Positions 2,551 to 10,459 of a stretch of 64,000 nucleotides of DNA are shown here, piece by piece. Position 1 is the first letter of the stretch. Each line of letters begins with the position of its first letter. The notes beneath the pieces are model-generated. The model did not search any database. It was not told the origin of the DNA and saw only the letters and a list, made by a program, of their open reading frames with translations. This DNA comes from an uncultured archaeon. GTDB taxonomy: Archaea > Asgardarchaeota > Hermodarchaeia > Hermodarchaeales > Hermodarchaeaceae. Location of the stretch: contig CAYFXC010000003.1 in the NCBI GenBank assembly GCA_964347045.1, positions 115,722 to 179,721 on the forward strand, in the 5' to 3' direction. The translations under genes and the position numbers were made by a program.

Positions 2551-3485
2551 CAATGTCGTGCGGTTGTTACGGTGCATCCGTTTTTTTCTACTATTAATGT
2601 GTGTTCAGCCTGGGCAATAGGGCTTCCATCCTTTAATCCTAATACTGAATAATTATGAATGCATCCCTCTCGTTTAAGCACGTTTAGTATTTGGGCTACT
2701 TTGTCTGGTTCTACTAGCTCAGCCATCCAACGGGACGCAAAAGGTAATTGACTAAATTTAATTTTCATCTGACTAAAAAGAGAGCGTAATTTGGGATCCT
2801 TTGGATTTCGCACGTGAGTAAATCCAAAAATATGCCCTGGTTCCAAATTATCAACATGAGGATTTTGGCTATAAGTGGCGAAGGGTTCAATAGCTACAAC
2901 CATGTTTTCCTTTAACCGAGGCGAGCTTGTACGTTCCGTTGCGTATGTCACCGAAGGAACAGATATTCCAGCATGAAGATTAAATTGTTCGATACTATGG
3001 CCTGTGAGGTTTTCAATCGGGCGCGTTTTCATCTGTTGCATTGCGGCTGAAATGGCTTTAGATACATTCCAAATGCGGATTCCTGCTCGAACGGTGTTAA
3101 TTGCTGCCTCCAAACCTGCTTCTGCTCCATCAATAAGCTGTTGAAGGCCTTCATCATCACCGACTAAAACAGTTCGAGCATTATCTGCAACAAAACCATC
3201 TATGTGTACACCCAGATCAATCTTTACGAGAGCAATATCCGGAATTTGCGTAGAATCATCTAAGCTTGGTGTATAATGAGCCGCATGATGATTTATCGAG
3301 ATGTTAATAGGAAACGCAGGTTTTCCACCAAGGCTTTGGATTTTAGTTTCTCCTGCTTCAGCAATTGAATATAATGGTTCACCTGCTTTTACGAGATCAC
3401 AAGAAAATACTAGTGCTTCCGAAGCGATTTTTCCAGCACGCTGTAATTTTTCGCGTGTTCGTTCAAACATTGCCATATCACGCAT
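2550..3485 (-). CDS. map: Type II methionine aminopeptidase
   Basis: AFPINIS..AAHYTP, KIDLGVHIDG..AD, NLTGH...LHAG, AIEPFAT and AQAEHT motifs. Confidence 0.95.
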   Translation of the reverse strand: MRDMAMFERTREKLQRAGKIASEALVFSCDLVKAGEPLYSIAEAGETKIQSLGGKPAFPINISINHHAAHYTPSLDDSTQIPDIALVKIDLGVHIDGFVADNARTVLVGDDEGLQQLIDGAEAGLEAAINTVRAGIRIWNVSKAISAAMQQMKTRPIENLTGHSIEQFNLHAGISVPSVTYATERTSSPRLKENMVVAIEPFATYSQNPHVDNLEPGHIFGFTHVRNPKDPKLRSLFSQMKIKFSQLPFASRWMAELVEPDKVAQILNVLKREGCIHNYSVLGLKDGSPIAQAEHTLIVEKNGCTVTTARH

Positions 3486-3509
3486 ATCAAATCGTTTCCG
3501 TTAAGTGGA

Positions 3510-3540
3510 TTTGTCTAATTTCACGTGAAATTAAGACAAA
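3510..3540. promoter_or_regulatory. Near-perfect palindrome (candidate operator) in the divergent map / tubulin-operon intergenic region
   Basis: TTTGTCTAATTTCAC|GTGAAATTAAGACAAA: perfect 18-bp core TAATTTCACGTGAAATTA; the outer arms pair with one extra A. Confidence 0.55.
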
Positions 3541-3664
3541 ATTTGTCGTTGACTTTAATTTAGGTATTACTCCTAGTTTAGCTAAAGGTCAAAAAGAGTT
3601 AAGAATAGACTTTCCAATGGTTAAGAAAGGTGGATGTAAGCCACTTACCTCGGGGGCTCCGAAT

Positions 3665-6361
3665 GTGACTACATTAGCAGAGCTTCGCAAGTACTACTCC
3701 ATGCTAAAAGATATTAGTGCAAAATGTCGGACAATTATGGGTGGTCTCCCTTCTGAAATTAAAACCTCATTGGAAGATGTGGGACGGGAACTTGTAAGCC
3801 TAGAAGGTTTTGATAGGGATGCAAAAACGAGTTGGTCCCTAAGTCCGAAAAAACGTCGTCTTATAAAGCAAATTGATCAAGGGCTGCCAAAAATCGATGA
3901 AGATCTCTCTCGTTCACTTCGACTTCACATTGAGCTGTTGAAGACTTACATGACTGAGCTTGAAGAGCTAAAAGCAACAATAATGACTTTTGATATTAAA
4001 CTAGGACGTGATCTCAACAATCTCACCTTTCCTTCGACACAAGGGGGACATTCAGTTGTTTTGCCGGTTCTTTCACGATTTGTAGCTAATTTTGAAGGTC
4101 TTTCTAAACAATTACGTGACGCTCTACTAAAGCAAACGAATGATATGCTTGAACAAAATCGGGCGTTGATTAAAACCTACGATCGGTTTGTTGGTATTGA
4201 CACGAGTGATGTTTCAATTAGTGCCGAGCGGGAAACTGTTGATGTGAGTACTATCCCGGAGCTTTTTGAAATTCGCAAGACACTACGCCAAGAGCATGAA
4301 TATCTCACAAGTCGACGTGGCGAAGTTGTTGATACATTACGAGCGAAACTGCAAGCTAGTATTGAATCCTCCGTATCCCTCTTAGAGACTGCTCGTAGTT
4401 TGAGTCTCAAAGTTCCTATGGCTATTTCTACATCACTTGAAGCGCTGAAAAAACAACTCAAAGGTGAGACTAATCTCACCACACTTCTCGGGTTGGTTCA
4501 ACAATATGATGGGCAAGTGTTAAAAGCCTCAAGTGAAGTCAGAAGCCAAATACTTGAATTTGGTCATAATCTTAACCGCATTCTTGCTAGCGCTAATATC
4601 GCTAGTGAAGCCACTTTTCTTCCTCCTTTACCTCCTGAAGTTCCCAAAGATGCGGATTTAGCTGCGCTAGTTGCAAGCTATGAACGCCTACAAGCATACC
4701 ATACCAATGTTGAAACAGCTATCCGTGCTGAGATCATGCGTATAGTAGATGATTTGACTCGTGCTGTAAAACGGAATGTGCTTCCAAACACTGCGGAACT
4801 AGATAAATTCGTGAAAAATGAATCGAAAAAGGTAAAGAAAGGAGATCTGAAAGTTCTTGTCAAGGTATACTCCGAGGTTGCGGCTCAAATAATTGATGAA
4901 CATGGAAAATTACTAGCTGAAATTAGAACTCAAGAAGCTTTACTAACTCGAATCTCAGAAACCGCTAGTACAATTCTTGATAAAACCACAATGGGTGCAG
5001 CTCCTGCTCCTGTTCGAACCACAGACATTAGCTTCCCTGAGTTGGTTGAGGCGTATGCAAGACTACGAAAGCATGTTGAGAATCGGATCGATCTGTTCCG
5101 AAAAGCTTGGGAACGTGAACTCAACGCGCTTCTTGCTGAAATCCAAGTGATAAAACCAACCTATCGGGAATCTTTCAAAACCATGGAAGAATTTTTGGAA
5201 AGTGCTATTGCACATATCCGCGCTAGTACTAGTTTCGAGGAAATTGAAGAAGTCGCCCGTGAGGCTCAAGGAGATGCTCTATATAAAGCGCAAGACGCCA
5301 TTGAAAATCTCAAATATCGCCTAGATCTCAAACTGCGATTGGCGGTTTCAAAACTTTTAGGTATGGGGTTAACTATTCCTTCGGAAGTCCAGTCAGCCAT
5401 TCAAGAACTGACAACGGTGGTCCCCGCTAGTGAAACCTATGAAGAAGCGATTCGTAAGGCCCATCACATTGTTGAACTTTTCGAAAAACGAATTGTGGGA
5501 TACTTCAACCAGACTCTTAATGAACAAATCAAAGCCTTCTCAGAGTTAACAAGCGTGTCTGCTTCCTTGGGCATCAAAACAGACTCTTATGTCAAAGAAT
5601 CAATGAAACTGCAGGACAAATTACCCGCAAATATTGAGGAACTCCCTGACCGGTTCGACGAACTTCGTGAATTACTTACCGACCCTAAGTTGCTTAAGGA
5701 TATCCGTTCGAAAGCCAACGAAGTCTGGCGAAATCTCAATTCAGTTACTGATCTTCTTGAACGTCATGGACAAGCCGAGATTGTAGCTAAACTAAAGGAT
5801 CTGCTCGCTCGTGTTCCCGACGCCTTAGAAGCTGAACAAGTAAACACTGTTCTTGAAATTTGTATGGCTCTCATTGAAGCGCAAAATAGTGTACTTGATA
5901 TTCTTCGCAACATGGAGCAAAAGACTGGACAAGCATACGAGCAGTTATTAGAAAATACTACCGAATACTACTCAACGATTAAAAGAGTATACGCGGCACG
6001 ACCGCTTGAATTTAGCAAAATCATATTTCCGTTAGATACTTTGCAGAATTTGCGTGGAAAATTAGAAACCGTTAATTCTCTACCCGAATCTATTGATATA
6101 TTCACAACCATCCGCAGTTTAGAACAGCAATGGTTAGAAAAAATCAAAGAGCTTGATGAATGGCACAAGGCGCTCCGCGTTTTCCTCGCTGACTTTAATC
6201 CAGCGGCGCCTAAAGCTGAACGTAATCGTCAACTCAACGAAATCGAAAAAAGAATTCGCGAAACCTATACGCGCGAGGATACTGCAAACTACCTCACTTG
6301 GGCTGCCAGAGAACTTGCAGCTGTCATGATCGAACAAAAAACAAAAGCAAAGAAAAAATAG
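3665..6361 (+). CDS. Large all-alpha-helical repeat / coiled-coil protein (~898 aa), first gene of the tubulin operon
   Basis: L/E/K/R-rich amphipathic helices throughout, with no TM segment and no Walker A. Start placed at GTG 3665 after GGGGG; the upstream ORF extension overlaps map. Confidence 0.8.
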   Translation: MTTLAELRKYYSMLKDISAKCRTIMGGLPSEIKTSLEDVGRELVSLEGFDRDAKTSWSLSPKKRRLIKQIDQGLPKIDEDLSRSLRLHIELLKTYMTELEELKATIMTFDIKLGRDLNNLTFPSTQGGHSVVLPVLSRFVANFEGLSKQLRDALLKQTNDMLEQNRALIKTYDRFVGIDTSDVSISAERETVDVSTIPELFEIRKTLRQEHEYLTSRRGEVVDTLRAKLQASIESSVSLLETARSLSLKVPMAISTSLEALKKQLKGETNLTTLLGLVQQYDGQVLKASSEVRSQILEFGHNLNRILASANIASEATFLPPLPPEVPKDADLAALVASYERLQAYHTNVETAIRAEIMRIVDDLTRAVKRNVLPNTAELDKFVKNESKKVKKGDLKVLVKVYSEVAAQIIDEHGKLLAEIRTQEALLTRISETASTILDKTTMGAAPAPVRTTDISFPELVEAYARLRKHVENRIDLFRKAWERELNALLAEIQVIKPTYRESFKTMEEFLESAIAHIRASTSFEEIEEVAREAQGDALYKAQDAIENLKYRLDLKLRLAVSKLLGMGLTIPSEVQSAIQELTTVVPASETYEEAIRKAHHIVELFEKRIVGYFNQTLNEQIKAFSELTSVSASLGIKTDSYVKESMKLQDKLPANIEELPDRFDELRELLTDPKLLKDIRSKANEVWRNLNSVTDLLERHGQAEIVAKLKDLLARVPDALEAEQVNTVLEICMALIEAQNSVLDILRNMEQKTGQAYEQLLENTTEYYSTIKRVYAARPLEFSKIIFPLDTLQNLRGKLETVNSLPESIDIFTTIRSLEQQWLEKIKELDEWHKALRVFLADFNPAAPKAERNRQLNEIEKRIRETYTREDTANYLTWAARELAAVMIEQKTKAKKK

Positions 6362-6373
6362 GGTTGGATTAAC

Positions 6374-7723
6374 ATGGAAGCAACTGATGAAGGACCGCGA
6401 GTCGCGGAAGTATTTGCCATCGGAATTGGAGAATGCGGAAGCAACCTCGTTGGGGCCTACCTCAAGCAAGCGCGTGAACGCATGCTACCACCACGTATCC
6501 GCGGATACTTGTGCATGAATACTGATCGATCCGACATAACGAAGCTCCGTCAAAAATATGACATTCCCAAAGAAAACACTCTCCTTTATGGCGCATCAGA
6601 TATTGGTTGTGGCGGGAATTTTACTGATGGTTATAATTACGTTCATGACTTTAAAGATGTCATCATGGGTCAGTTGACGCAACTGGGGTTTGAGGGAGTC
6701 TCTGGGTTTGTCATATTTACGTCATCGGGCGGTGGAACTGGCTGTGGAGGCGCCCCCGCTTTAATTGAGATATTAAAGGAAAGATTTCAAGAGGAAGAAG
6801 GCCGTCGCATTTTCGTCTACGTCTTTACCGTACTTCCTTTCAAGGATCAAACCTCTGAAGCTCTCAACACTATGTGGTCGCTCTCCAAACTTCTGCGTGG
6901 GCAATTAGAAGATCGCGGAGCTGATCTTGTTTGTCTCCTTAGTAACCGCGCTATGCTTCGACGTATTCTGGCTTGGCGAGAAGGCGAAGTAGCTGATTTC
7001 TTACAAAAGCAGTTACAAATTGATGTGGCTAAAGTTACCGATGTTGAAGGAATGGTTCCTTCAACTGTCGATGGTGCCGATGATGTGTCCAAGGCACAAG
7101 AATCAGCTTTTGTGGAACTCGTGAATCCTCTTGCGCTTAGGTTTGTTGAGCACATGCTAAGTCCTGGCGTCGTTGAGCCGGGTAAAGAAGTTTTTCCGAC
7201 AACGGACATCGCAGACTACGCAAGGAAACTGGATCCTATTGTGGTGCCCTGTCTATATACTGATGTAAGTCTAATTCCCTCTGCTGGAAACATTCCGACG
7301 CAACTAAAAACAATGGTCAAATATGCCGTTGAACATTGTAGCTTTGCCGAAATCGGTTCAGAGCCAGGGGCTTCATCGACATATTATACCTTCTCAGGAA
7401 CTCGTGAATATGCACGAGCTGAATACGATCCACATATTAAACAGGCGCTTCGCCCTTATATTGCAAAGGGCGCAGCGATTACACCCTGTTTTGTGTCCTA
7501 TGATGAGGACACCCATCCATCTGATTTACTTCTTCTTTTGGGACTTCCTCAGATTCCTGAAATTGAGGATTTGGTAAATTCAGCTACTGAACTTGTGGAT
7601 CTTCATGCAGGTCCCTCGCCACTTCGAAGAGGTTGGTTTAAGAAATCTAAGGGTGTCGGTGAAGAAGTTCTTCGTGCATCCATCCGTGATGTTGCTGAAT
7701 TATTCAATCTCGAAATGAAGTAA
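6374..7723 (+). CDS. Tubulin/FtsZ-superfamily GTPase, tubulin-like
   Basis: T1 GIGECGSNL, T2 MNTD, T3 GCGGNFTDGY, signature SSGGGTGCG, VLPF..EALN, LLSNRAM, T7 TTDIAD. C-terminus GWFKKSKGVGEEVLRASIRDVAEL resembles tubulin H11'-H12. Confidence 0.9.
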   Translation: MEATDEGPRVAEVFAIGIGECGSNLVGAYLKQARERMLPPRIRGYLCMNTDRSDITKLRQKYDIPKENTLLYGASDIGCGGNFTDGYNYVHDFKDVIMGQLTQLGFEGVSGFVIFTSSGGGTGCGGAPALIEILKERFQEEEGRRIFVYVFTVLPFKDQTSEALNTMWSLSKLLRGQLEDRGADLVCLLSNRAMLRRILAWREGEVADFLQKQLQIDVAKVTDVEGMVPSTVDGADDVSKAQESAFVELVNPLALRFVEHMLSPGVVEPGKEVFPTTDIADYARKLDPIVVPCLYTDVSLIPSAGNIPTQLKTMVKYAVEHCSFAEIGSEPGASSTYYTFSGTREYARAEYDPHIKQALRPYIAKGAAITPCFVSYDEDTHPSDLLLLLGLPQIPEIEDLVNSATELVDLHAGPSPLRRGWFKKSKGVGEEVLRASIRDVAELFNLEMK

Positions 7724-7750
7724 ATTAAGCATTAGTGGAGAAGAAGAAGG

Positions 7751-8761
7751 TTGATAACAGCAGAAGAATTGCTGGAACGCATCCTCATTCTCACCACAGT
7801 CAACTCCACTCTTATTCATGCTCTTATTACCATAGAAGCCGAAGGAGATCTTAATCCTAAACAAATCAACCAGCTTGCTAGAGGAGTCCGGGCGGTTCGA
7901 GAATCGGTTGAGCAAGCACTAGTCGACTCAAAAAATAACAATATTTCTTCAGGTTCGTCCTTTGTGGATGACACCATCAAAGTTATTCTCACTCATCTTG
8001 AACGCATTGAAGCAGCCTTGGACTCATATGCGAAATCGCGAAAGAGAAAAATCTCAAAAGTGGAAGTAAAAGAACCCATTATTGCTACCCAACAACTAGT
8101 TGCTGAAGCTAGCGAGGATCTTGCGGGACTTACTAGTAAGCCATTTCAACGTCGACTTTCTGTTTTTGATCCGGATAAGCTTCTTCCACCTATTCAGCAG
8201 TTATTGGATAAGTATTCCAGCAGGAGTCACCTTCTTTTACCCAATTATTGGTTCGAATCATGTCGGGAGCTATTCCGATACAGTGAACCACGTGAGGTGA
8301 TCAAAGAAGTTACGCGTATAGCAAGTCAAATTTTCTACTCTCTTACACGCCGATTTCTTGCTGAAGCACCCTGTGCAGGTCTGCTTCAAGAACTTTCACG
8401 AAAAGGTTCACTAGGCAACGAATTAAACAGCCGTGAACGGAATAAAATCGCGGGAACTAGTAGTGAGTTCTATGATCAGCTTGCTAAAGCTCTAAAAGAA
8501 AATTCAGTAAAATCGAGTATTTCAGATGCTAAACGGAGTCTTCGCTCCTTTGATTGGGGTCCGGCTGACGTAGAGAAACGGGTAGTTGGTGTAATTCATC
8601 GCAGTGCACGAGAACTTGTGGACCAAGCTGCAGATGGTAAGACTCTTTCAGTCCTAGAACGAATTATCCACGCTGAGCTTAGTCGCTACATCTCTGCGTT
8701 AGCTACGAATCTCCATAACTTACCGCGATTAAACAAATTGTTAACCGATATGAAGGTCTAA
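7751..8761 (+). CDS. Uncharacterised all-helical protein (336 aa), third gene of the tubulin operon
   Basis: Long ORF 27 bp after the tubulin stop, purine-rich leader, amphipathic helices, no recognisable motif. Confidence 0.75.
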   Translation: MITAEELLERILILTTVNSTLIHALITIEAEGDLNPKQINQLARGVRAVRESVEQALVDSKNNNISSGSSFVDDTIKVILTHLERIEAALDSYAKSRKRKISKVEVKEPIIATQQLVAEASEDLAGLTSKPFQRRLSVFDPDKLLPPIQQLLDKYSSRSHLLLPNYWFESCRELFRYSEPREVIKEVTRIASQIFYSLTRRFLAEAPCAGLLQELSRKGSLGNELNSRERNKIAGTSSEFYDQLAKALKENSVKSSISDAKRSLRSFDWGPADVEKRVVGVIHRSARELVDQAADGKTLSVLERIIHAELSRYISALATNLHNLPRLNKLLTDMKV

Positions 8762-9360
8762 GTTGGGTATAGTCGCTTCTTTAATTGTGCGTTCCCTGTT
8801 TCAACGTCATAATCAATCAAATCTGCTCGAGAAAGGTCGCCCAATGCTTTTCTGATTGCAGTAGCTTCATGTCCGGCTGTTTTTGTAATCTCGTCGCGGG
8901 TCATCTTTTTCTTCTTTCCATGCAAAAGGAACAATGTCTTCGCATGGGGTTGAGCATAAAAGACGTCTTCAAGTAACGCAATGTATAGGGCTAACAATTC
9001 CTGAACCGGGATTGATGTTTCTTGTTCAGCTACCAGCTCTTTGTAGGTGTCAGACATCTTCTCTAATTGTGTCTTAATGGCGTTAAGTTCTGATTCTAAA
9101 GCTCGGTTCTTGACCATCAAATCAGTTGATTTATCCGCTGATTCCTTCAGTTCATTGATTGTTCTTTCCAATCTGTCAATGGTCGCATTCTTGTTTTGAA
9201 GGTCACTGGTTAATTCCTCTATGCGTGCTTCTGCGGTTTTATTCCGTTCACGTTGCTCTACAAGCTCTTGGTTCATGTCATTGACAATTTTTTGAACTTT
9301 TTTTACAGTCTTTGTGGCTTCAGCAGGATAATCCTTTTCGGGTGGTTTCTCAGTTGCCAT
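8758..9360 (-). CDS. N-terminal coiled-coil plus C-terminal winged-helix protein
   Basis: Heptad-rich N-terminal half, then MTRDEITKTAGHEATAIRKALGDLSRADLIDYD (wHTH pattern). AGGTGA RBS precedes ATG 9360. Confidence 0.75.
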   Translation of the reverse strand: MATEKPPEKDYPAEATKTVKKVQKIVNDMNQELVEQRERNKTAEARIEELTSDLQNKNATIDRLERTINELKESADKSTDLMVKNRALESELNAIKTQLEKMSDTYKELVAEQETSIPVQELLALYIALLEDVFYAQPHAKTLFLLHGKKKKMTRDEITKTAGHEATAIRKALGDLSRADLIDYDVETGNAQLKKRLYPT

Positions 9361-9427
9361 TCTATTCACCTTCTATTGTCACTTTACATTGCTTAGGGTT
9401 TCTTGTATTTATGGCTAGAGTTTTCAT

Positions 9428-10459
9428 CTACTTAGTGTTTTTTTGTTTGCGAGTTGCAATACGGTTGAGTTGAGGTGGTGGCGGAGGTGCTACAATTGAT
9501 TCTTGGGTAAAATCGAAAATAGTTATCACGTCATTTTCAAACGTTGCCTTCAGTTGTTGTGTAGAATCCACAGTTCCCAATGAGGTGGCTGTTAATTTAT
9601 GTTCTTTAAAGATGGATATGACCGATTTAACATTATCCGGAATAGTCGTGACGATAAACCCTGTCGAGATGTACATTTTCAACCAAGTAGTTAAATCAAG
9701 ATTCTTTGGAACAGGTATAGCCGCAAAATCGATGGTTGCGCCCTTTTGCGCATACTCCAACATTAGAAGGCTTGTCCCAATAATGCCTCCGTTGCTCAAA
9801 TCCTTTGATGCGGTAAGAAGACATCGTTCTGCAAGAACTCGCATTGCTTCATATCGTTTGAGAACATCCTTCGACTTCTTAAGGGCGGTAGTGTCCCATC
9901 CAAACTCATAATTCGGAGAAACACGTCCTTCTAAATCGACTGCTAGAATGAGCTGATCACCTGGCTGAGCTCCACCCGCACTGATATAGGCTTCTCTGGG
10001 AACTGTTCCACAAATTGATGCACTTACTCCATTAATCGGGGCATTGGGTGTCGTATGTCCTCGGACTACTTCAACTTTGAACTTTTGCCCCGCGTCACAG
10101 ATTCCTTCCATAAACTTCACACCTGCTTCCATTTCAGTGAATGCGACGTTAACCATAGCCACAATTGGGCGTCCACCCGCTGCATAGATATCATTCACAT
10201 TAACAAGGATAGCAGCATACCCGGCAACATACGGCTTAGACTCCGCTAGTTCTGGGATGACTGCATCTGTTGAAAGCAAAATAAGATTATCTCCACCCAG
10301 GTCAATGGCTGCGGAGTCCTCTCCAATTGAAGAGAGAACATGTGGGCATTTGAACCCTTCATTTCGAAGAATTGTTACCAGTTGACCAATTGGTTGTTTA
10401 CGGCGTAATCCCCAATAGTCTTTTACATCAGAAACGATAGTAGACAACTTTTCAGGCAT
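9428..10459 (-). CDS. AIR-synthase-related (PurM/ThiL superfamily; methanogenesis marker 2 / sll0787-like) protein
   Basis: IGEDSAAI, VNVNDIYAAGGRP, GHT, AQPGD and KDLSNGGIIG motifs. Confidence 0.85.
   Translation of the reverse strand: MPEKLSTIVSDVKDYWGLRRKQPIGQLVTILRNEGFKCPHVLSSIGEDSAAIDLGGDNLILLSTDAVIPELAESKPYVAGYAAILVNVNDIYAAGGRPIVAMVNVAFTEMEAGVKFMEGICDAGQKFKVEVVRGHTTPNAPINGVSASICGTVPREAYISAGGAQPGDQLILAVDLEGRVSPNYEFGWDTTALKKSKDVLKRYEAMRVLAERCLLTASKDLSNGGIIGTSLLMLEYAQKGATIDFAAIPVPKNLDLTTWLKMYISTGFIVTTIPDNVKSVISIFKEHKLTATSLGTVDSTQQLKATFENDVITIFDFTQESIVAPPPPPQLNRIATRKQKNTK

Follow-up and report, generated by a model that had tools for sequence, protein, structure and literature searches.

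A tubulin-superfamily GTPase of the Asg.Tub clade is encoded together with two orphan helical proteins across Asgard archaea

The 64,000-nucleotide (nt) stretch analysed here, referred to as the window, lies on contig CAYFXC010000003.1 of an uncultured archaeon of the family Hermodarchaeaceae and belongs to a 2.58-Mb Asgard metagenome-assembled genome that is 89 % complete. It contains three co-directional genes, designated A, T and B, the second of which codes for a GTPase of the tubulin/FtsZ superfamily; together they probably constitute one conserved, Asgard-specific and co-translated module. We consider it likely, if well short of certain, that this is a dedicated GTP-dependent filament module in which T forms the filament, B binds to its side and A acts as a modular scaffold.

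Results

Genes A, T and B are conserved as a trio in ten Asgard families

The three genes and their products are:

Gene A, 3665–6361, plus strand: 898 amino acids (aa), all-helical product, from the open reading frame (ORF) listing and translation, with the start placed by alignment
Gene T, 6374–7723, plus strand: 449 aa, tubulin/FtsZ-superfamily GTPase of the Asg.Tub clade
Gene B, 7751–8761, plus strand: 336 aa, helical product, TTG start

A first, sequence-only reading of the locus had described three co-directional genes of 898, 449 and 336 aa separated by 12 and 27 bp, and both the ORFs and the junction sequences bear this out: the stop codon of A (6359–6361) is followed after a 12-nt spacer by the ATG of T (6374), and that of T (7721–7723) after a 27-nt spacer by the TTG of B (7751). 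The neighbourhoods known from other members of the superfamily (SepF, TubR/tubC, Snf7, or an A/B pair of tubulins) are absent from the locus, as that reading had also stated.

Orthologs of T, A and B were compared in 41 related genomes. A and B were each found in 22 of them, always together with T, adjacent to it and on the same strand; two genomes showed only one of the partners, and in these T is cut at the end of the contig. The 19 related genomes without a T ortholog yielded no A and no B. A phylum-wide search identified T in 125 of 400 Asgard genomes, distributed among ten families, and did not find it in other Asgard families (for example, in 0 of 135 and 0 of 31 genomes). Co-occurrence of the flanking genes with this tubulin clade had been set beforehand as a test of the proposal that the three genes are a dedicated unit, and its outcome did not refute the proposal, which is further favoured by the synteny in ten Asgard families and by the predicted binding of T to B described below.

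For the analysis of synteny, ORFs were called in 40 fetched loci and grouped by iterated hidden Markov models (HMMs); counts are given over 41 loci. An ortholog of A was situated directly upstream of T in all 41, and the order A, T, B, with B directly downstream of T, was kept in 37 of them, from ten Asgard families. The spacers between the three genes lay between −73 and about +50 nt, apart from three of 217–376 nt, one of which corresponds to an inserted gene. The four loci without B are a second, paralogous copy (A′-T′) present in one family, and the same genomes retain the complete trio. Additionally, independent gene calls placed three divergent members of the B family just downstream of a gene matching the Pfam family PF00091, with a large gene on the upstream side if the contig reaches that far. 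In a tree of T, each multi-member taxonomic family formed a single group, and the paralog T′ was placed beside its own family, which implies an old, vertical inheritance. These results indicate that the module is chromosomal and vertically inherited.

Several loci carry variants of this arrangement. The paralogous operon, found in one family (L027, 8920–14678; L030, 4462–10231; L031; L043), consists of a 311-aa orphan gene followed by A′ (ca. 1140 aa) and T′ (ca. 441–448 aa), and it is always faced by a convergent gene for a 739-aa GTPase of the Gtr1/RagA family. The 311-aa orphan is conserved and belongs to no Pfam family; it was rejected as a displaced B, with an hhalign probability of 0.07 % and no HMM match at E 10. 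In one genome (L032, 10555–14163), an orphan of 1202 aa without Pfam family is inserted between A and T. Another family has, always in the same position after B and on the same strand, a gene of ca. 280–297 aa (L023, 6784–7629) whose product has helical repeats weakly resembling those of apolipoproteins (PF01442, E 4e-7, below the cut-off), and which may be a lineage-specific fourth component. Lastly, locus L062 (2541–9809) contains a divergent trio with an A of 1311 aa and a B of 602 aa, of which residues 286–600 are B-like and the rest is an N-terminal extension of ca. 285 aa.

T is a member of the Asg.Tub clade

The assignment of the middle gene to the tubulin superfamily was confirmed by a match to PF00091 (residues 12–195, 67.3 bits for a cut-off of 33, E 2.8e-18). 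T contains the T1 loop GIGECGSN and the signature GGGTGCGG, the latter being invariant and having Cys in place of Ser/Thr. A T7-like motif, TTD(I/L)ADY (TTDIADY in this T), includes the invariant residues D278 and D281 and fits the N-x-D-x-x-D/E pattern of FtsZ and tubulin, an assignment made by sequence pattern only. An alignment of 33 orthologs has 80 invariant columns, which include G119–G125, N191, D278 and D281. The mean column identity was 61 % for T against 31–34 % for A and B, as one would expect of a filament-forming protein whose partners are adaptors. The isoelectric points are 4.95 for T, which is acidic, and 9.05 for the basic B, and no clear membrane helix was predicted in A, T or B. 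As a separate observation, T has cysteines in three nucleotide-binding loops: C21 in T1, C79 in T3, seen only in the family of the host and replaced elsewhere by Val, and C124 in the signature loop, which is invariant at a position usually occupied by Ser/Thr.

In a profile search against the PDB, the best match of T was CetZ1 (4b46, E 8.7e-14), followed by another CetZ (3zid) and CetZ2 (4b45), and then by beta-tubulin, OdinTubulin, BtubA and gamma-tubulin (E 5e-7 to 1e-5). All these matches are confined to the N-terminal domain: that to CetZ ends at about residue 175–193, and the similarity to tubulins is limited to residues 72–201, with E 5e-7 at best. Relative to CetZ, T has an insertion of ca. 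45 residues after T6. The C-terminal half (235–449) did not match any solved chain, CetZ included, at E up to 10, and the tubulin C-terminal domain PF03953 was not matched in T at E up to 1.

Asg.Tub is the name given to four Asgard sequences by Santana-Molina, del Saz-Navarro and Devos (2023, Front Microbiol 13:1100249; PMC9871819), who found their position unstable between CetZ and tubulin and report a C-terminus without matches, C-terminal HMMs that do not cross-match and unrelated gene contexts; the neighbours of these sequences were described as unknown, unrelated genes with coiled-coil regions. The clade also serves as outgroup, under the name of "CetZ-related Asgard archaeal clade", in 10.64898/2026.02.15.705738. 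OLS26264.1, from the four-sequence C-terminal alignment of PMC9871819, is the T homologue P0088 (50 % identity to T, E 1.9e-144), and the motifs FVELVNPLAL, PTTDLADY, LGLPKIPE and WFxRSKG are common to T and the Asg.Tub alignment; on these grounds of sequence, T is a member of the Asg.Tub clade. We found no published work defining the partners or function of Asg.Tub, or the trio. The term "undescribed" used in the sequence-only reading is too broad for the GTPase, whose clade had a name and whose coiled-coil neighbours had been noted (PMC9871819).

In the 89 %-complete genome, a single gene matching PF00091 was found besides T, which is of the FtsZ type (E 7e-47; contig C1, 101667–102146, locus L049). 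Two FtsZ paralogs are common in many archaea.

The C-terminal domain of B is predicted to bind T

The AlphaFold2 model of B is helical, with a mean predicted local distance difference test (pLDDT) of 83, and divides into an N-terminal three-helix bundle predicted with modest confidence, whose hydrophobic first helix has a pLDDT of 58–67, a disordered linker (ca. 102–128), and a C-terminal helical domain (130–336) with pLDDT above 90. The first helix exceeds every other stretch of A, T and B in hydrophobicity, with a 19-residue Kyte-Doolittle mean (KD19) of 1.57 for a usual cut-off of 1.6, and its character is conserved. All the invariant residues in the alignment (D140, P164, E205-A206-P207, G270, E275, R277 and K335) are located in the C-terminal domain, whose motifs are EAP, W-G-x4-E-K-R and a C-terminal MK(P/V).

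Prediction of a complex of the tubulin with each partner had been suggested as a check at the outset and was run for B. The interaction score ipSAE was 0.66–0.67 in three runs, against 0.00 for the best of three controls, with at least 95 % of the contacts common between runs and a partner pLDDT of at least 77. The calibration mark for this score is reached by 58 of 80 solved complexes and by 2 of 110 mismatched pairs, counts that are approximate here since custom alignments were used. Recall from a solved structure is unlikely, because no similar complex is known. The interface involves residues 205–207, 269–287 and 335–336 of B and residues 52–76 and 93–104 of T, and in the predicted complex B contacts the start of the T3 loop (residues 74–76). 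Six of the 17 interface residues of B are invariant or nearly so (E205, A206, P207, G270, R277 and K335; p=1.5e-5). These predictions support the binding of T by the C-terminal domain of B.

By alignment to CetZ and tubulin, the surface of T contacted by B would correspond to helix H2, the H2-S3 loop, strand S3 and the C-terminal half of H3. The equivalent face in tubulin is engaged in lateral, not longitudinal, contacts, and the predicted B site would leave both longitudinal faces of T free.

No Pfam family or significant structural match was found for A and B

The description of the genes flanking T as all-helical orphans was upheld, since neither product has a Pfam family above threshold and both models are helical throughout. 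No PDB sequence relative was found for either protein, and their profile rows were only apolipoprotein-like or low-complexity, above E 0.004. Pfam scans found no tetratricopeptide repeat (TPR) families in A, B or the 32 A orthologs, and no DNA-binding domain was detected in A or B. An exhaustive profile search among 1.84 billion proteins retrieved only 53 clusters of the B family. Foldseek gave zero PDB matches to B at E 1e-3 or better, and the VIA searches returned three-helix bundles for residues 1–105 only (best Z 9.6, root mean square deviation (rmsd) 2.3, 91 aligned residues), the C-terminal domain being barely covered. The ESM Atlas held no usable match to B by features and, by shape, none with a template modelling (TM) score over 0.31.

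The AlphaFold2 model of A is entirely helical (mean pLDDT 85.5, predicted TM score 0.38), and hhalign comparison of segments detected internal repeats with a period of ca. 130 aa (probability 56–87 %). The length of A varies from 873 to 1311 aa between lineages by block insertions of ca. 112–150 aa, and its C-terminal part, of ca. 140 aa, is better conserved than the rest. A varying number of repeats together with a conserved C-terminal part is expected for a scaffold, spacer or cross-linker, and not for an enzyme; we thus propose that A is a modular scaffold or spacer, although this is the least supported step of our interpretation.

Foldseek found no significant fold match to A, for which the 898-residue model was searched whole, which weakens matches to single repeats. 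The best VIA-align results were generic helical bundles (Z 11.7, 132 residues, rmsd 3.1 Å), below the level that is meaningful for helical proteins; the ESM Atlas contained only its own Thorarchaeota cluster (0.88), and a word-based search with the A profile retrieved close relatives only, among the matches listed. Two candidate identities for A gained no support. For a relationship to the gamma-tubulin complex proteins (GCP) of the gamma-tubulin ring complex, Pfam offered no GCP family at E up to 1, and the GCP chains found by Foldseek aligned to the whole model without significance, with E 0.9–1.3 and TM scores of 0.07–0.08 (TMq) and 0.09–0.10 (TMt), a whole-model search blunting matches to single domains. 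Homology to spectrin, EzrA or PRC1 was likewise unsupported: neither Pfam nor the searches by PDB sequence and by fold gave a hit to spectrin or EzrA, and the PRC1 chains among the top Foldseek rows were insignificant (E 0.1–0.3, TM scores 0.07–0.09 as TMq and 0.12–0.16 by chain).

The convergent gene W is not part of the module

Downstream of B, on the opposite strand, is a fourth gene:

Gene W, 8758–9369, minus strand: 203 aa, coiled coil and weak winged helix, convergent with B

The end of B at 8761 and that of W at 8758 make their stop codons overlap by 4 nt (8758–8761), so the convergent coiled-coil gene of the sequence-only reading is indeed there, and a Pfam scan showed that its product combines a coiled coil with a weak TrmB/TFIIE-like winged helix. 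That reading had further proposed the protein as a possible coupler of the filament to DNA, which is not supported. The W family is present in 33 of the 41 related genomes, including six families without T; W adjoins the trio only in the family of the host, where it converges on B with the 4-nt overlap throughout, and in the other families bearing T it is found on other contigs or ca. 6 kb away. From this distribution, W is independent of, and not part of, the A-T-B module.

Start of gene A, upstream region and flanking genes

Two upstream codons were ruled out as the start of A by alignment with 12 related genomes: TTG 3365, which opens the mechanically called ORF (998 aa), and ATG 3617, which is missing in one congener. 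Indels upstream of 3665 are not multiples of three and break the frame, and GTG 3665 is kept in nine of ten other congeners, is TTG in the tenth and aligns with an ATG in the sister genus; A was therefore set at 3665–6361, with 898 aa. Two further features precede this start:

3552–3664, plus strand: promoter and 5′ leader block, non-coding, ca. 110 nt, conserved upstream of gene A
3510–3540, no strand assigned: 31-bp palindrome, imperfect, located in the gap from which gene A and the M24 peptidase gene diverge

The block at 3552–3664 is nearly invariant in an alignment of 11 congeners and absent in the sister genus. Its features are a TATA-like sequence (TTTAATTTAG), a run from AAAAGAGTTAAGAA to ACTTTCCAATG and a small hairpin of sequence GUAAG-CCA-CUUAC; ahead of the start codon of A is a stretch rich in G that resembles a ribosome-binding site. 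The hairpin has a compensatory change (GAAAG/CUUUC) in one genome and a breaking change in another; the consensus fold from RNAalifold was weak, and the block had no Rfam match. It may be a leader with a regulatory role. The palindrome, with 12-nt arms and a perfect 16-bp core (AATTTCACGTGAAATT), exists as had been reported, but its significance did not stand: the window holds 206 short inverted repeats of this sort, itself included, and it falls outside the 25 longest and is not conserved in the alignment of congeners, so that we judge it no functional part of the module.

No Rfam family was found in 3300–9500 at E up to 1, nor any tandem or iteron repeats in 3000–9800. The genes flanking the locus are ordinary and unrelated to the trio: those for M24 and M20 peptidases lie upstream, and on the downstream side there is an AIR-synthase-like gene together with a TldD/PmbA pair. 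A search for sequencing runs containing the stretch listed no RNA run and one DNA metagenome run, from which the stretch may derive.

Discussion

A dedicated filament module and its alternatives

In the dedicated filament module that we favour, T would form head-to-tail polymers with GTP and hydrolyse the nucleotide once assembled, as family knowledge, the intact nucleotide-binding loops and the T7-type acidic pair suggest. The C-terminal domain of B would dock on T at H2, at the H2-S3 loop and along the C-terminal half of H3 and, since the predicted docking face is that of the lateral contacts in tubulin, B could decorate the side of the T protofilament or hold T subunits there. Its variable N-terminal bundle might then control bundling, lateral association or attachment. 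A would be a scaffold, spacer or cross-linker setting the geometry, a role suggested by its architecture and its linkage to T. In the cell, the module may serve shape, the support of division, or the organisation of membranes or cargo.

Several points weigh against this interpretation. Polymerisation, GTPase activity and binding are all deduced, and both the mapping of the interface to secondary structure of T and the reading of its C-terminal half come from aligning its sequence with those of CetZ and tubulin. Since the alignments are part of the input to the structure predictor, the excess of conserved residues at the interface does not count as fully separate from the prediction. On the T side, conservation at the interface does not exceed that of the remaining protein, and the extra divergence of the B-binding face in the paralog T′, whose A′-T′ operon has no adjacent B in the one family that carries it, was not significant (p=0.10, N-domain). 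Lastly, no fused A-T or T-B proteins were found among longer proteins, which is weak evidence.

T could instead be a divergent CetZ acting alone in cell shape, as in Haloferax, with A and B being neighbours without a physical link to it. Its best solved-structure matches are CetZ1, CetZ2 and the CetZ of M. thermophila, the clade is called CetZ-like or CetZ-related in two papers, and some database records label its members "Tubulin-like protein CetZ". We nevertheless regard this as unlikely, because the match spans only the N-terminal GTPase domain and the C-terminal half matches no CetZ, in agreement with C-terminal HMMs that do not cross-match and with unrelated contexts (PMC9871819), and because the strict co-occurrence, the short or overlapping spacers and the controlled prediction of the T-B interface favour physical partners. 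Similarly improbable is a membrane or trafficking module in which an amphipathic or hydrophobic helix of B or T tethers the polymer: the absence of a clear transmembrane segment, the burial of the hydrophobic helix of B in the three-helix bundle of the AlphaFold2 model (although with pLDDT 58–67) and the convergent orientation of the RagA-like neighbour, confined to one family, count for more with us than the conserved hydrophobic character of that helix (KD19 1.57), the constant pairing of A′-T′ with the Gtr1/RagA-family gene, or the connection of divergent FtsZ-like families with membrane remodelling that is made by Makarova and Koonin (2010).

We see very little chance that T and B are a stable, non-polymerising heterodimer, a GTP-dependent switch whose effector platform is A. 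The predicted interface is 1:1, and B touches the start of the T3 loop (74–76), which senses the gamma-phosphate in the superfamily; however, the T7-type acidic pair, which has a use in a polymer alone, does not vary, filament formers typically show the very high conservation that T has over its whole surface, and the B site inferred from the alignment leaves both longitudinal faces free. A DNA segregation system of the TubZ-TubR-tubC type, with W coupling T filaments to DNA and the palindrome as the W site, is hardly credible. The coiled coil and winged helix of W, and its convergent overlap with B throughout the family of the host, would suit it; against this, W homologs occur in 33 of 41 relatives, six T-less families included, and lie elsewhere in the other T-bearing families, there are no tandem or iteron repeats in 3000–9800, the palindrome lacks conservation, scans of A and B detected no DNA-binding domain, and the module appears chromosomal and vertically inherited.

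Comparison with known tubulin-family systems

The set of 2023 comprised four Asg.Tub sequences, without operon, partner families or function (PMC9871819); here the clade, of which T is a member, extends to 125 of 400 Asgard genomes, and in the loci examined T comes with A and B proteins of the same families. The closest solved relative of the N-terminal GTPase domain of T is CetZ (Duggin et al. 2015; PDB 4b46, 4b45, 3zid), and both are archaeal tubulin-superfamily proteins outside the division machinery. T differs from it in a C-terminal half without detectable similarity, a tubulin-like T1 (GECGSN) and the insertion after T6, and CetZ has no partners of the A or B type, the B family being confined to its 53 clusters. 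The Asgard AtubA/AtubB and OdinTubulin (PDB 9f6t, 7evb) are also tubulin-superfamily proteins encoded in short operons; however, they are true tubulins forming (mini-)microtubules or tubules, whereas T matches them weakly (residues 77–200, E 1e-5 to 1e-6) and has no Tubulin_C match.

In its organisation, the trio resembles the BtubA/BtubB-BtubC operon of Prosthecobacter, small and with tubulin-family genes followed by that of a dedicated helical filament-binding protein. Prosthecobacter, however, has two true tubulins and a TPR (kinesin-light-chain-like) protein, in place of a single GTPase intermediate between CetZ and tubulin and two non-TPR orphan families. The type III partition module TubZ-TubR-tubC is likewise built of three parts around a divergent tubulin-family GTPase, but it contains a DNA-binding adaptor and centromere repeats and resides in plasmids and phages, whereas the trio has neither repeats nor a conserved DNA binder and is apparently chromosomal and vertically transmitted. 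The role proposed for A, a long all-helical repeat protein organising tubulin-family polymers, has analogues in the spectrin-like EzrA, acting on FtsZ, and in PRC1/MAP65; this is an analogy, the homology not being significant.

Significance

The trio represents a widespread tubulin-superfamily system, phylogenetically situated between CetZ and tubulin, in the closest archaeal relatives of eukaryotes. A GTPase accompanied by two dedicated orphan proteins, one of them with a specific predicted interface, makes for a directly testable problem, and the two new families would join the short list of prokaryotic filament-associated proteins. It is possible, though on balance we doubt it, that the module is a self-contained third tubulin-family cytoskeleton of Asgard archaea, beside FtsZ and the Atub microtubules, in which a cytomotive filament has co-evolved with B as a lateral binder resembling a microtubule-associated protein (MAP) and with A as a scaffold whose repeat number serves as a length "ruler". 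If true, this third cytoskeleton would be a prokaryotic precedent, made from families without known relatives, for the eukaryotic organisation of tubulin plus dedicated MAPs.

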